64,000 nucleotides of DNA, from NCBI RefSeq assembly GCF_056712565.1, contig NZ_CM160072.1; one strand, given 5' to 3'. Of this stretch, positions 11,162 through 64,000 are shown piece by piece (position 1 is the stretch's first letter; each line of letters starts with the position of its first letter). The notes below the pieces were generated by a model, which worked only from the letters and a program-made list of their open reading frames with translations, did not search any database and was not told the origin of the DNA. Position numbers and translations under genes: made by a program.

Positions 11162-11192
11162 CAAAAATGCCCGATCCTCGATCGGGCATTTT
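11162..11192. terminator. Bidirectional intrinsic terminator between purT and eda
   Basis: Stem ATGCCCGATC / GATCGGGCAT with A-run upstream and T-run downstream. Confidence 0.8.
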
Positions 11193-33457: not shown

Positions 33458-33556
33458 GCCGGATGCGGCGTGAACGCCTTATCCGGCCTACAAAGTCTTG
33501 CTAATTCAATATATTGCAGGGGCTATGTAGGCCTGATAAGCATAGCGCATCAGGCA
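33458..33556. repeat. Pair of REP elements downstream of cmoB
   Basis: TGCCGGATGCGGCGTGAACGCCTTATCCGGCCTACA and GTAGGCCTGATAAGCATAGCGCATCAGGCA. Confidence 0.8.
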
Positions 33557-40841: not shown

Positions 40842-40872
40842 AGCCGATGTCATTGCAGACATCGGCTTTTTT
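40842..40872 (+). terminator. Intrinsic terminator of argS
   Basis: AGCCGATGTC-loop-GACATCGGCT followed by TTTTTT. Confidence 0.8.
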
Positions 40873-44488: not shown

Positions 44489-44696
44489 GTCGCCAATCCT
44501 GGAAAGAGTATTAAGCGTAAATGATGCCAGAGCGCAAAGCGTTCAATGGTTTGAGTAAGGGGCAAAACAGGCGGGATTTAGGGCTTTTGCCACAGCACAT
44601 CAGGCATGGTGACATGTTTGTCGGGTACGGCGTAAACGCCTTATCCAACCTTGAAGATCTGATGTGACGCGGCCACGTCACATCAGGCAATACAAA

Positions 44697-54137: not shown

Positions 54138-54231
54138 AAAGAAAGCAGCGGTACATCGTTACCGCTGCTGGAATGTTTCGCCACACCGTATCAGTTAAAC
54201 AGCCTGTACTCTCTGTTCATCCAGCAGTTGT
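54138..54231 (-). ncRNA. motR: Candidate MotR-like sRNA from the motA leader (ends approximate)
   Basis: Sigma-28 promoter at 54238-54264 inside flhC, followed about 90 nt downstream by hairpin GCAGCGGTA...TACCGCTGC plus TTTCTTTTG (54138-54169), upstream of the motA start. Confidence 0.45.
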
Positions 54232-56340: not shown

Positions 56341-59696
<3,356 letters not shown>

Positions 59697-59707
59697 ACTC
59701 TCCTTAC

Positions 59708-61222
59708 TCAGGCAACTGCCTGGCTGACTTTAGGCATCGCAAGGCTCAGTGCCTGACGCTCATCTGCCTGCTCGTGTAACAATTCACCGGCGATTTCGCC
59801 TTCCCGCATCACCACAATCCGGTCGGCAACGCCGAGGACTTCAGGTAAGTCGCTGGAGGCAAACAGCACCGCCACACCCTGCGCCGCCAGCGCATAAATC
59901 ACGTTGTAAATTTCATGCTTAGCACCAACATCAATGCCACGCGTAGGTTCATCCAGCAAAATGACCTTCATCTCTTCCGATAACCAGCGGCCCAGAATGG
60001 CTTTTTGCTGATTTCCGCCTGAGAGATTCATGATCAGTTGCTCAGCGCCCGGCGTTTTGATGTTGAGCGAACGAATGTGGTGATCGGCATTGTTTTCTTC
60101 CCAACCGTTGTTGATTACACAACCGCCAAGCACATGTTTACGTCTGGCACTGATGTTGATATTGTCGCGAACGGAGTGCACGGGAATAATGCCTTCCGCT
60201 TTGCGATCTTCCGGGCAGAGCATCATGCCTGCGGCAATGGCGTGGCTCGGTTTACGAATATCGATCGGCTGTTGGTCGATATAAACCTGACCGGCGGTGA
60301 TTTGCGTCCCGCCAAACATGCCTTTCATTAATTCGCTACGCCCTGCCCCGACCAGACCAAACAGACCGACAATTTCTCCACTGCGAACCGCCAGACTTAT
60401 TGGCGTACGCACGCCTGGTGCTTTCACAGCATCAAGACGCAGCCGCTCCTCGCCATAACTACGCGGTTGCCAGCCGTAGATATCGCCAATGTCGCGCCCG
60501 ACCATCGCCTGCACCAGTGCGTCGTGGTCAACCTGCTGCATATCGGTAAAGGTTTTGACATAACGCCCATCTTTAAAGACGGTGATGGCATCGCTGAGGG
60601 CAAATATTTCTTCCATACGGTGAGAAACGTATAAGATCACCCGCCCCTCTTTTCGCAGTTCACGAATAACGCGGAAAAGATTGTCGATTTCGCGGGCAGA
60701 GAGGGAGCTGGTTGGCTCATCAAAGGCGATAATTTTGGCGTTACGCGCCAGCGCTTTGGCGATTTCAACCATCTGCCACTGACCAATGGAGAGATATTTC
60801 AGCGGCGTGTCCGGGTCAATATCCATACCAAGATGTTTAATTTGTAAACCTGCCTCATAATTCAGCAATGAACGATTCACAATGCCGCCTTTATGCGGCA
60901 GCTGGCCGAGATAGATGTTTTCCGCGACGGTCATTTCCGGCACGAGATGCAGTTCCTGATAAATAATCGCCACACCCGCGTTAAGTGCTGCGGTCGTGTC
61001 GGAAAAGGACATTTCCTGCCCATTAATCACTACAGAACCCGTGGTTGGCGCATAGTTTCCGCTGAGGATTTTTAAGAGAGTTGATTTTCCTGCGCCATTT
61101 TCACCCATCAACGCATGAACCTGACCGGCATAGCAGTCAAAACTAATATCCGTCAGCGCCTTAACGCCGGGAAACGTTTTACCGATGCCGCGAAATGAGA
61201 GATACGGGGTAGACTGTTGCAT
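59708..61222 (-). CDS. araG: L-arabinose ABC transporter ATP-binding protein (duplicated ABC domains)
   Basis: Start taken at [19 protein letters not shown] (504 aa); two Walker A motifs ([19 protein letters not shown]). Confidence 0.95.
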
Positions 61223-61291
61223 AACGTCTCCGTGAATCACTGGTCGTTCACACCCCCTCTGCATCATGCAGAGGGGAATTTTTCCGGCAAA

Positions 61292-62281
61292 TTACTTACC
61301 GCCTAAACCTTTTTTCTCCAGTTCTTCTTTAAAGTTGTCACGCGTGATCAGCACCACGTCGGTAACTTCGGTGAATTTGGTCGGTTCAACACCTTTTGCA
61401 ACCCAGTTGTAAAGCATTTCGCTGGACTTATAACCATGTACGTCCGGGCTTGGCAGCAGGGAACCGTAGAAGCCGGTTGCCTGTGCCTTAGACAGTTCAC
61501 TCACCGCATCCACACCGTTAATACCGATACCGATGATATCGCTCGCTTTAAAGCCCTGACCTTCCGTCGCGCGTACGCCGCCCAGCACGGTGCTGTCGTT
61601 CATACCGACAATCAGCCAATGTTTAACTTCCGGATGTTGAACCAGCATTGAGTTGGCAGCGTCAAATGCCCCCGGGATGTCGTTAGATTTGGTAGGTACC
61701 TGATAAATTTGTTTTTCCGGGAATCCTGCAGCTTTCAGCGCATCCATAGACCCCGTAGTACGGCGACGAGCCGTATCCAGTTCGTTGGAGGTAATCGCCA
61801 TCACCGCGCTTTCTTTGACATCCCAGCCACGTTTCTGCATCTCTTTATACAGTTCCTGGCCCTGACGTTCGCCAATTTTGGTCGCAGCCATCATCACCAG
61901 CGGAACGGTATCCATTGGCTTACCTTTGGCGTTAACAAACTGGTCATCCACGGCAATGACTTTCATATCGTAGCCACGCGCTTTCGCCACGATGGCAGAG
62001 CCGAGTTTCGGGTCCGGAGTACAAATAACGAAACCTTTCGCGCCACTGGCAGCCAGGCTGTCGATAGCGTTCAATGTTTTTTCGCCATCCGGCACGGCAA
62101 TCTTAATAACTTCAAACCCTAAATCCTTCCCGGCTTTATCGGCAAACTTCCATTCGGTCTGGAACCACGGCTCTTCCGGTTGCTTCACCAGGAAACCGAG
62201 CTTCAGGTTCTCCGCCATAGCGGATTGTGACATAACGGCTGCCAGACCAATGGCTGCCAGGGCTTTAGTAAATTTGTGCAT
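61292..62281 (-). CDS. araF: L-arabinose-binding periplasmic protein
   Basis: Start taken at MHKFTKALAAIGLAAVMSQSAMA (329 aa) with signal peptide. Confidence 0.95.
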   Translation of the reverse strand: MHKFTKALAAIGLAAVMSQSAMAENLKLGFLVKQPEEPWFQTEWKFADKAGKDLGFEVIKIAVPDGEKTLNAIDSLAASGAKGFVICTPDPKLGSAIVAKARGYDMKVIAVDDQFVNAKGKPMDTVPLVMMAATKIGERQGQELYKEMQKRGWDVKESAVMAITSNELDTARRRTTGSMDALKAAGFPEKQIYQVPTKSNDIPGAFDAANSMLVQHPEVKHWLIVGMNDSTVLGGVRATEGQGFKASDIIGIGINGVDAVSELSKAQATGFYGSLLPSPDVHGYKSSEMLYNWVAKGVEPTKFTEVTDVVLITRDNFKEELEKKGLGGK

Positions 62282-63077
62282 GGTTCTCTCCAGCTTTAGT
62301 GTCGTTTTGTGTAGGGCAAAAACGAATGACATTCGTTAAATTAATCGGAAAACAAAGCATTACCTTTTAACTAAAAGATAAGTGACTGTGTTGACATAGT
62401 TTTAGCGAGAAATTAATTCTCCATAGGAGAGCAATATCACATCGCAGAATTACAGTGAAAACGTGCATAAATTTAGCGGGAAAAGACATAAGGAAAAGCG
62501 AATTTGTCAGACAAATTATCGAGTGCACAGCAGAATAATCCATAAGATTAGCCTGGAAGTCCTTGTTGTCTTTGGTACCCATGCGGGATGTCTTCTTTTT
62601 AACCAGTCAATAGGCCTCATTACCTGGCGTTGAGTTTTTGCAATGGTGTAATAACCGCAACTTAAAGATGTGGAAAATGCGCGTCATTCATTTCGCCATT
62701 AATTATCACTGTACTCATTAATTAACAGAACACGTATAATGAGAGCTATATCGCAAAAATGAAAAAACGTTTTATAAAATCATTGCTTCATCATGAATTC
62801 AAATTCATCGATTAATATCAACAAGATACAAAAAGCACCATCATTAAAATTCATTACAGTTACATTGATTTCATCAATGAAATGTAAAAATATATAAACT
62901 TGATGATTTAAGCATTTTCTTATACCCGTTCAGACGTTATTCTTATTTCAGATCATCGTCAGAATTGACTCCACGATCACATTTCGGACCGGCAGAAAGG
63001 AATTATTCTGCAAACAGTAATTATGGTGTTTTGATTTATCTTGCACCTCTCCACTTCTGGATATAAGGATATTAGGT

Positions 63078-63581
63078 ATGGCAACCGCTGGAATGCTTCT
63101 CAAACTCAACTCTCAAATGAACCGCGAGTTTTACGCATCCAATCTCTACCTTCACCTGAGTAACTGGTGTTCTGAACAGAGTCTGAACGGCACCGCCACT
63201 TTCCTTCGCGCCCAGGCACAGAGTAATGTGACCCAAATGATGCGCATGTTTAACTTTATGAAGAGTGTCGGCGCTACCCCCATCGTTAAAGCCATTGATG
63301 TTCCCGGTGAAAAACTGAACTCTCTGGAAGAACTGTTCCAAAAAACGATGGAAGAATACGAGCAACGTTCAAGCACGCTGGCGCAGTTAGCCGATGAAGC
63401 GAAAGAACTGAATGATGATTCAACCGTCAATTTCCTGCGCGATCTGGAAAAAGAACAGCAGCATGATGGCCTGTTACTGCAAACCATTCTTGATGAAGTG
63501 CGCAGTGCGAAACTTGCTGGTATGTGTCCTGTGCAGACCGACCAACATGTTCTGAATGTCGTGTCGCATCAGCTACATTGA
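63078..63581 (+). CDS. ftnB: Ferritin-like protein FtnB
   Basis: 167-aa ORF matching FtnB. Confidence 0.9.
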
Positions 63582-63586
63582 TCATC

Positions 63587-63660
63587 ATCGGCGCTAATGC
63601 ATTGCGCCGATGAAGTTTTTGAGAAACCGCTGCCTCATTTTTTTGAAGCAGCGGTTTTTT
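63587..63660 (+). terminator. Tandem hairpins downstream of ftnB, overlapping the yecJ stop
   Basis: CATCGGCGC...GCGCCGATG followed by AGTTTTT, then AAACCGCTGC...GCAGCGGTTT followed by TTT. Confidence 0.7.
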
Positions 63661-63910
63661 AATGGGATTCGCCCTGTGGGGTAAACTTGAGTTCAATCAA
63701 CGCGATGGCTTTTTGGATTGCCCGCATGGTGACCGGGTCTGCGGCGGCGGGATGGTTAGTAAAGTCGATATTCTTCAGCTGGCTGGACATTTTTTCGCGA
63801 ACTTCAACGGGCGCGATCACATCGAGAACATCCAGAATTTGTTTGATAACCAACTGGCAAGCAACCACATCAGAAACCAGTTCCTGATCGGCATTCAGCG
63901 GCTGGGACAT
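63659..63910 (-). CDS. yecJ: DUF2766 family protein YecJ
   Basis: 83-aa ORF matching YecJ. Confidence 0.88.
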
Positions 63911-64000
63911 CGTAAACTCCTGATAGCATTTTGAAAGCCTTTATAGTAGCGGCTTCACATCTTCAGCGATAGTCACATCCACCGTCATCAGAACACAAAA

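Follow-up and report, generated by a model that had tools for sequence, protein, structure and literature searches.

Hairpins that lie between the cistrons of an operon and stabilise the upstream part of the message have been textbook knowledge since 1987. For the araFGH operon itself, Scripture et al. (1987) and Horazdovsky and Hogg (1987), both in J Mol Biol 197, are said to have noted a dyad symmetry in the araF-araG spacer, and reportedly also an abundant araF-only transcript beside the full-length one. Our full-text literature search for a hairpin or stem-loop at araF/araG, which did not reach these 1987 araFGH papers, returned only irrelevant ones. A better documented case is the malEFG operon, in which an endonuclease makes the initiating cut and a stem-loop between malE and malF then stops the 3'-to-5' exonucleases (Newbury et al. 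1987, summarised in PMC5927463), REP-type palindromes being the class experimentally shown to stabilise malE (precedent summarised in PMC5927463). More broadly, Dar and Sorek (2018, PLoS Genet, PMC5927463) found that the substrate-binding subunit was the stabilised segment in all of the ABC-transport operons that they scored. The araFGH operon lies outside their set, araF and araG being unnamed in those parts of the text and supplements that were examined (PMC5927463), presumably because it is not expressed without arabinose.

The araF-araG hairpin of E. coli, described below, resembles the malE-malF element in being a stable stem-loop immediately 3' of the cistron for a periplasmic binding protein in a sugar ABC-transporter operon. 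Neither element stops RNA polymerase, and both loci favour the upstream cistron, malE being more abundant and araF being more strongly induced. Unlike the malE-malF REP element, the araF-araG hairpin is unique and single-copy in E. coli, and its protective effect is putative. It falls in the same proposed functional class as the protective 3' structures of Dar and Sorek, most of which are located inside the downstream open reading frame, whereas the araF-araG hairpin is intergenic (PMC5927463). In this sense, the araFGH hairpin as a probable stabiliser is sound but ordinary, and already known: it illustrates the textbook route by which one operon could yield more binding protein than membrane transporter. 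The only aspect that we regard as mildly new is that an antisense RNA 3' end has been mapped to this hairpin in E. coli K-12. The comparative data describe a structure retained while its sequence turns over, including replacement by REP elements, and users of araFGH or those engineering arabinose uptake are dealing with a spacer that apparently carries a functional RNA structure.

Location and stability of the hairpin

The araFGH operon occupies the minus strand of the window (the whole 64-kb stretch of E. coli DNA that was analysed). It comprises araF, encoding the periplasmic L-arabinose-binding protein (61292..62281, stop codon at 61292-61294), araG, encoding the ABC ATPase (59708..61222, ATG at 61222-61220), and araH, the last gene, encoding the permease (58707..59693). 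An 11-pair hairpin with a T-rich tail is found about 38 nt after the araH stop (58642..58669, minus strand) and is the probable terminator of the operon. A 251-nt query around the site matched 5416 of 5426 complete E. coli genomes, where the annotations are again araF and araG.

The initial annotation had described a perfect 10-bp stem-loop at 61254-61276, between the araF stop and the araG start, and this description is confirmed. In the 69-nt spacer (61223-61291), the plus strand at 61254-61276 reads CCCCTCTGCA-TCA-TGCAGAGGGG; positions 61254-61263 pair with 61267-61276, and an inverted-repeat search returned 11-nt arms (61254-61264 and 61266-61276) that are 100% complementary. On the araFGH mRNA, the stem-loop spans 61253..61277 (minus strand) and consists of 10 Watson-Crick pairs, 7 of which are G-C, a 3-nt UGA loop and a closing U.G pair (61277/61253). 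On the mRNA, 15 nt separate the araF stop codon from the stem, and 31 nt lie between the stem and the araG ATG. The mRNA strand reads ...GGAAAAAUU-CCCCUCUGCA-UGA-UGCAGAGGGG-GUGUGAACG... through the hairpin, and UAA-UUUGCCGGAAAAAUU-(CCCCUCUGCA UGA UGCAGAGGGG)-GUGUGAACGACCAGUGAUUCACGGAGACGUU-AUG from the araF stop to the araG start, with the hairpin in parentheses. The Shine-Dalgarno sequence of araG, GGAG (61228..61231, minus strand), is outside the hairpin and is not sequestered by it.

The sense RNA folds at -19.8 kcal/mol including the closing U.G pair (z = -5.25), and none of 200 shuffles folded as well. In the 64-kb window, only 6 places carry a perfect inverted repeat of at least 10 bp whose loop is 1-8 nt long; these amount to 10 nested hits, where dinucleotide shuffles gave 0.76 +/- 1.0. 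The araF-araG hairpin is not a product of chance. The other perfect repeats of at least 10 bp in the window are at 11165-11191, 23351-23378, 40842-40867, 44659-44686 and 54144-54169. Two of them are likely terminators judging by their flanks, the repeat at 11165 lying between A-rich and T-rich sequence, and the repeat at 40842 being followed by TTTTT.

With regard to known element families, a covariance-model scan of 58000-64000 against Rfam (cmscan, E up to 10) found nothing at the spacer, and the MG1655 record has no feature annotated for the hairpin. The stem arms are single-copy within the window, and a 60-nt query matched a median of one place per E. coli genome. The hairpin also lacks the copy number of REP or BIME elements, with at most 2 places per E. 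coli genome, and no REP motif was found when the arms CCCCTCTGCA and TGCAGAGGGG were compared with the REP consensus (GCCGGATG...CATCCGGC type). Elsewhere in the window, REP-like elements are present at 18182-18211 and 33458-33487.

We also considered whether araG might start at the ATG in the hairpin loop (61265-61267, minus strand), which opens an in-frame reading frame of 519 aa (59708-61267). This start was rejected because the ATG is missing in other Escherichia, whose loops are UUA, GUUAU or UGUGU, and because it has no Shine-Dalgarno sequence, while the annotated start is conserved together with its GGAG.

Conservation of pairing across species

The comparison covered one genome per species, for a total of 80 loci from Enterobacteriaceae and Erwiniaceae (Escherichia to Klebsiella, Pantoea and Buttiauxella; AraF identity 91-98%). 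In all 80 loci araG follows araF, with a spacer of 53-152 nt, and each of the 80 distinct spacers holds a stable single hairpin (best dG on average -21.5 and at the weakest -15.3 kcal/mol). The spacers themselves fall into 19 clusters at 70% identity that are unrelated in sequence. This turnover can be followed in the arms, which are CCCCUCUGC/GCAGAGGGG in Escherichia, GCCCCUCAC/GUGAGGGGC in Enterobacter, GCCUCCCGCC/GGCGGGAGGC in Klebsiella and Raoultella, ACGGGCGUGC/GCACGCCCGU in Mangrovibacter and GGCGAGCGC/GCGCUCGCC in Atlantibacter. Several Citrobacter spacers, among them those of loci L048, L050 and L056 (3991-4104), hold REP-type palindromes. One or two palindromes of this type (TAGGCCGGATAAGGC...ATCCGGC) replace the unique hairpin in several Citrobacter, also at loci L012, L014, L016, L030 and L047; this is a non-homologous replacement at the same position, by REP elements like those of malE-malF.

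The position of the structure relative to araF is also retained, the stem starting a median of 14 nt after the araF stop over the 80 species and 15 nt after it in E. coli. A distance of 14-15 nt after a stop codon is just outside the footprint of the terminating ribosome, and the stem can therefore stay folded.

A plain MAFFT alignment of 45 spacers placed the 3' arms out of register, RNAalifold recovering only 4 pairs from it, and for this reason we used end-anchored hairpin segments. The resulting set comprised 38 distinct hairpins from the alignable group of Escherichia, Enterobacter, Leclercia, Phytobacter and Kosakonia. In this helix alignment, 96.6% of cells form standard pairs and 7 of the 10 pairs have compensatory double changes. 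The covariation score was 0.305 against 0.147 in shuffles (0 of 500 reached 0.305) and at most 0.124 in slid registers, in an alignment that leans towards structure, given that the boundaries of the 3' segments were chosen by folding and that the sequences are related. Within Escherichia species, the stem is constant and the loop is free in both sequence and length (UGA, UUA, GUUAU, UGUGU, CUUUAUUGU).

Among E. coli genomes, 4773 of 5416 are identical over 60 nt. Of four variants sampled, two strains carry a C-to-U change in the 5' arm that yields a U.G pair (strain 136, VTEC+), strain KC-Dl-1 has a U.U mismatch in the stem, and one strain is changed outside the hairpin. The variant hairpins fold at -17.2 and -15.2 kcal/mol.

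As a DNA palindrome folds in both transcripts, we looked for an asymmetry between the strands. In the 38-sequence set, the homologous helix contains 17 G.U cells and 2 A.C cells. The sense-strand RNA is favoured because G.U outnumber A.C and because the segregating E. coli variant is of the U.G type. Folding energies point in the same direction with weak support. The raw comparison of minimum free energies favours sense over antisense by 58 to 20 (p = 3e-7); after clustering, 14 clusters against 5 do so (p about 0.05), and the observed difference of -2.31 kcal/mol compares with -1.56 kcal/mol in shuffles. The energetic asymmetry is thus largely base composition, and we therefore relied on the counts of G.U and A.C. 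Taken as comparative evidence, these patterns indicate that selection for pairing in the sense RNA has preserved the hairpin.

Two observations concern the spacer around the hairpin. The block CACGGAGACGTT (61223-61236, minus strand) upstream of the araG ATG, within which the GGAG lies, is almost invariant across genera, beyond what a Shine-Dalgarno sequence needs; in the cross-genus comparison the nearly invariant block reads CACGGAGACGUU. Enterobacter-type spacers have a GTGATT 5' of the hairpin that is complementary to an AATCAC beside the Shine-Dalgarno sequence, and a long-range helix between the two is possible.

The antisense strand and its mapped 3' end

Full-length RNA profiling in E. 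coli has described bidirectional terminators, in which the hairpin is preceded by an A-tract and followed by a U-tract. The araF-araG hairpin is like them in that transcripts from either strand make use of a single palindrome, and unlike them in that the T-run is on one side only and that araF and araG are co-directional, not convergent. Given this one-sided T-run, termination would be expected in the antisense direction only.

An AATTTTT tract lies directly 3' of the hairpin on the plus strand (61277..61283), which on the mRNA strand is an AAAAAUU 5' of the stem. The plus strand after the hairpin (AATTTTTCC) was called terminator-like by a pattern scan, and CCCCTCTGCATCATGCAGAGGGG AATTTTTCCG on this strand has the stem-loop and U-tract of an intrinsic terminator. 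In the Term-seq data of Adams et al. (2021, eLife, PMC7815308), a curated 3' end is placed at MG1655 1985131 (+), with the sequence string GAATCACTGGTCGTTCACACCCCCTCTGCATCATGCAGAGGGGAATTTTTCCGGCAAATTA and the class "antisense araF" (supplementary file 1). Using the position of araF in MG1655 (1985139-1986128, where 1985139 = window 61292) and an identical 61-nt string, the spacer being identical, this end maps to window 61284 on the plus strand. This base is the C that immediately follows TTTTT, at a distance of 8 nt from the stem, which fits the 7-9 nt spacing of terminators. The end had 1565 reads in LB at OD 0.4, 1137 in LB at OD 2.0 and 1414 in M63 glucose, and is tabulated in PMC7815308 but not discussed there.

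The same dataset (PMC7815308) contains an antisense 3' end inside araG (MG1655 1984165 (+), window 60318), which was seen in M63 alone, and also, antisense to araF, a Rho-termination region at MG1655 1985454 (+), window ~61607. These two features imply that antisense transcription across araG and araF exists and is pervasive in the operon. In K-12, an antisense RNA ends, or is trimmed back, at the araF-araG hairpin.

The hairpin therefore has two faces when compared with intrinsic terminators: it resembles them in its GC-rich stem and, on the plus strand, in the AAUUUUU that follows and in the Term-seq 3' end mapped 8 nt beyond the stem, and differs from them on the mRNA strand, where the tail GUGUGAAC is without the defining U-tract. 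The claim of the initial annotation that the element is a stabiliser "rather than a terminator" holds accordingly only for the mRNA strand, the antisense strand having a canonical hairpin with U-run and a mapped end. The T-run is kept in all Escherichia representatives and in a few Citrobacter (one group). Enterobacter, Klebsiella, Leclercia, Kosakonia and most other genera lack it and have kept the hairpin. Being restricted to this lineage, the T-run is a lineage-specific addition and not the reason why the hairpin is conserved. In Escherichia, the palindrome and its A/T tract additionally mark the 3' end of an antisense transcript.

Expression gradient and possible functions

In E. coli RNA-seq with and without L-arabinose (PMC12299780 Table S1), the log2 fold changes of araF were 9.71 (biofilm, 28 °C), 4.55 (planktonic, 28 °C), 2.55 (biofilm, 37 °C) and 0.94 (planktonic, 37 °C), those of araG, in the same order, 6.72, 4.02, 0.95 and 0.25, and those of araH 5.07, 3.19, 0.18 and 0.48, while araB, araA and araD were roughly equal within each condition. 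On microarrays of E. coli O157:H7 Sakai, araF was induced 10.45x and 6.01x, and the values for araG were not significant and 2.16x (PMC8489885); these, like the RNA-seq values, are fold changes and not absolute abundances or half-lives. The gradient from araF to araG runs in the direction that a stabiliser model predicts, and plausibly reflects one. Induction drops again from araG to araH, whose spacer is only 11-14 nt long and has no hairpin, and the araF-araG hairpin is therefore not the sole cause of the gradient; general 5'-to-3' polarity or translation-dependent decay must contribute. With respect to 3' ends on the sense strand, the Term-seq dataset (PMC7815308) lists none for araF, which is uninformative as the operon is uninduced in the media used.

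We consider it rather probable that the hairpin is an intercistronic barrier to 3'-to-5' exonucleases that protects the araF message. Polymerase would read through the hairpin because it is without a U-tract; consistent with this, araG and araH are still induced by arabinose (PMC12299780), and the stem-loop is directly 3' of the more strongly induced araF. The distal araG-araH part would then be cut by an endonuclease, or be prematurely terminated, and degraded by PNPase or RNase II. Decay from the 3' side would stall at the hairpin, and a translatable araF-only mRNA would outlive the rest and so help to keep binding protein in excess of the membrane components. The exonuclease block and its share in the stoichiometry are what we infer from precedent. 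The stabiliser proposed in the initial annotation thus keeps its real paired structure, its lack of a sense U-tract, its position next to araF and the stronger induction of araF over araG; the gradient has further causes besides the hairpin.

The intercistronic position and the graded induction would be equally compatible with partial termination, that is, with a weak attenuator or pause site without a U-tract that frees some polymerases after araF, so that stoichiometry is set by transcription and not by decay. The tail of the hairpin speaks largely against it. On the mRNA strand the stem is followed in E. coli by GUGUGAAC, with 2 U in 8 nt, in line with the initial annotation, which had seen no U-run at this place. 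At most 2 T are found in the 8 nt after the stem in 71 of 80 species and only three species have 4. A few relatives do have T-rich tails (Atlantibacter L022 and L026, Citrobacter sp. R56 L023), which would suit an attenuator. The terminator pattern scan did not call the site on the minus strand, where a GC-rich stem-loop is present and a U-rich tract is not. With so few T after the stem in 71 of 80 species, the hairpin is not an intrinsic terminator on the sense strand. E. coli RNA polymerase needs a U-tract for efficient intrinsic termination, and we accordingly hold an attenuator to be quite unlikely. A decay-based alternative would invert the polarity of the protection: RNase E would cut in the A/U tract 5' of the stem, and the hairpin, then 5'-terminal, would protect araGH as in papBA-type stabilisation. 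In GGAAAAAUUCCCC, a site similar to the RN|WUU motif, AA|AUU, does precede the stem by 2-3 nt, and 5' protective structures in other operons were described by Dar and Sorek (PMC5927463). This reading is nonetheless very improbable, since the A/U tract upstream of the hairpin is missing in most genera and the gradient favours araF, not araGH. The perfect 11/11 inverted repeat could finally be recognised in DNA by a dimeric protein, or be a functionless repeat of chance or relic origin. This we regard as close to negligible: pairing is conserved across species and sequence is not, the loop or spacer varies from 3 to more than 9 nt, G.U pairs are tolerated, fewer than one such repeat is expected by chance per 64 kb, neither arm recurs in the window, and the 60-nt query matches a median of one place per genome.

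The selected function could also lie on the other strand, where the hairpin and AAUUUUU would form an intrinsic terminator that stops antisense transcription coming from araG before it enters araF. The terminator-like call on the plus strand, the Term-seq 3' end at 61284, right after the U-run and in three conditions, the presence of the sense A-tract (the antisense T-run) in all Escherichia species representatives, and the Rho-termination region downstream on the same strand at 1985454 all speak for such a terminator. Its difficulty is that only Escherichia and a few Citrobacter have the T-run, other genera keeping a bare hairpin. The pairing also argues for the sense strand, with 17 G.U against 2 A.C, and the U.G polymorphism would be a C.A mismatch in the antisense RNA. 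Furthermore, by read count the end ranks near the bottom of the plus-strand entries listed (PMC7815308), and exonucleolytic trimming of a Rho-terminated antisense RNA could give the same 3' end. No antisense promoter was identified either, a promoter scan having returned 5 sites, none of them convincing, against 8.7 expected in shuffles. An antisense terminator as the selected function is therefore unlikely, though we give it somewhat more credit than the attenuator. We find it no easier than with the attenuator to believe that both strands are served in Escherichia, an ancient decay barrier on the sense strand having been joined by an A/T tract that makes it a one-way terminator insulating araF from antisense transcription; if true, the operon would be adjusted from either strand by one element of 30 nt.

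Returning to the decay barrier that we prefer, a natural disruption of the spacer is found in E. coli ECSC054 (NZ_AP024112.1; locus L002, 2282-3061), in a region that is fully covered in all but fewer than ~3 of 5416 genomes. An IS200/IS605-family insert with an annotated tnpA is located there at window ~61281, where it interrupts the A-tract, 3' of the araF stop codon and 5' of the hairpin. In the sense direction of araF, the element begins with a hairpin and T-run of its own (CCTCCGGCATAGCCGGAGGTTTTT), and it should be polar on araGH.
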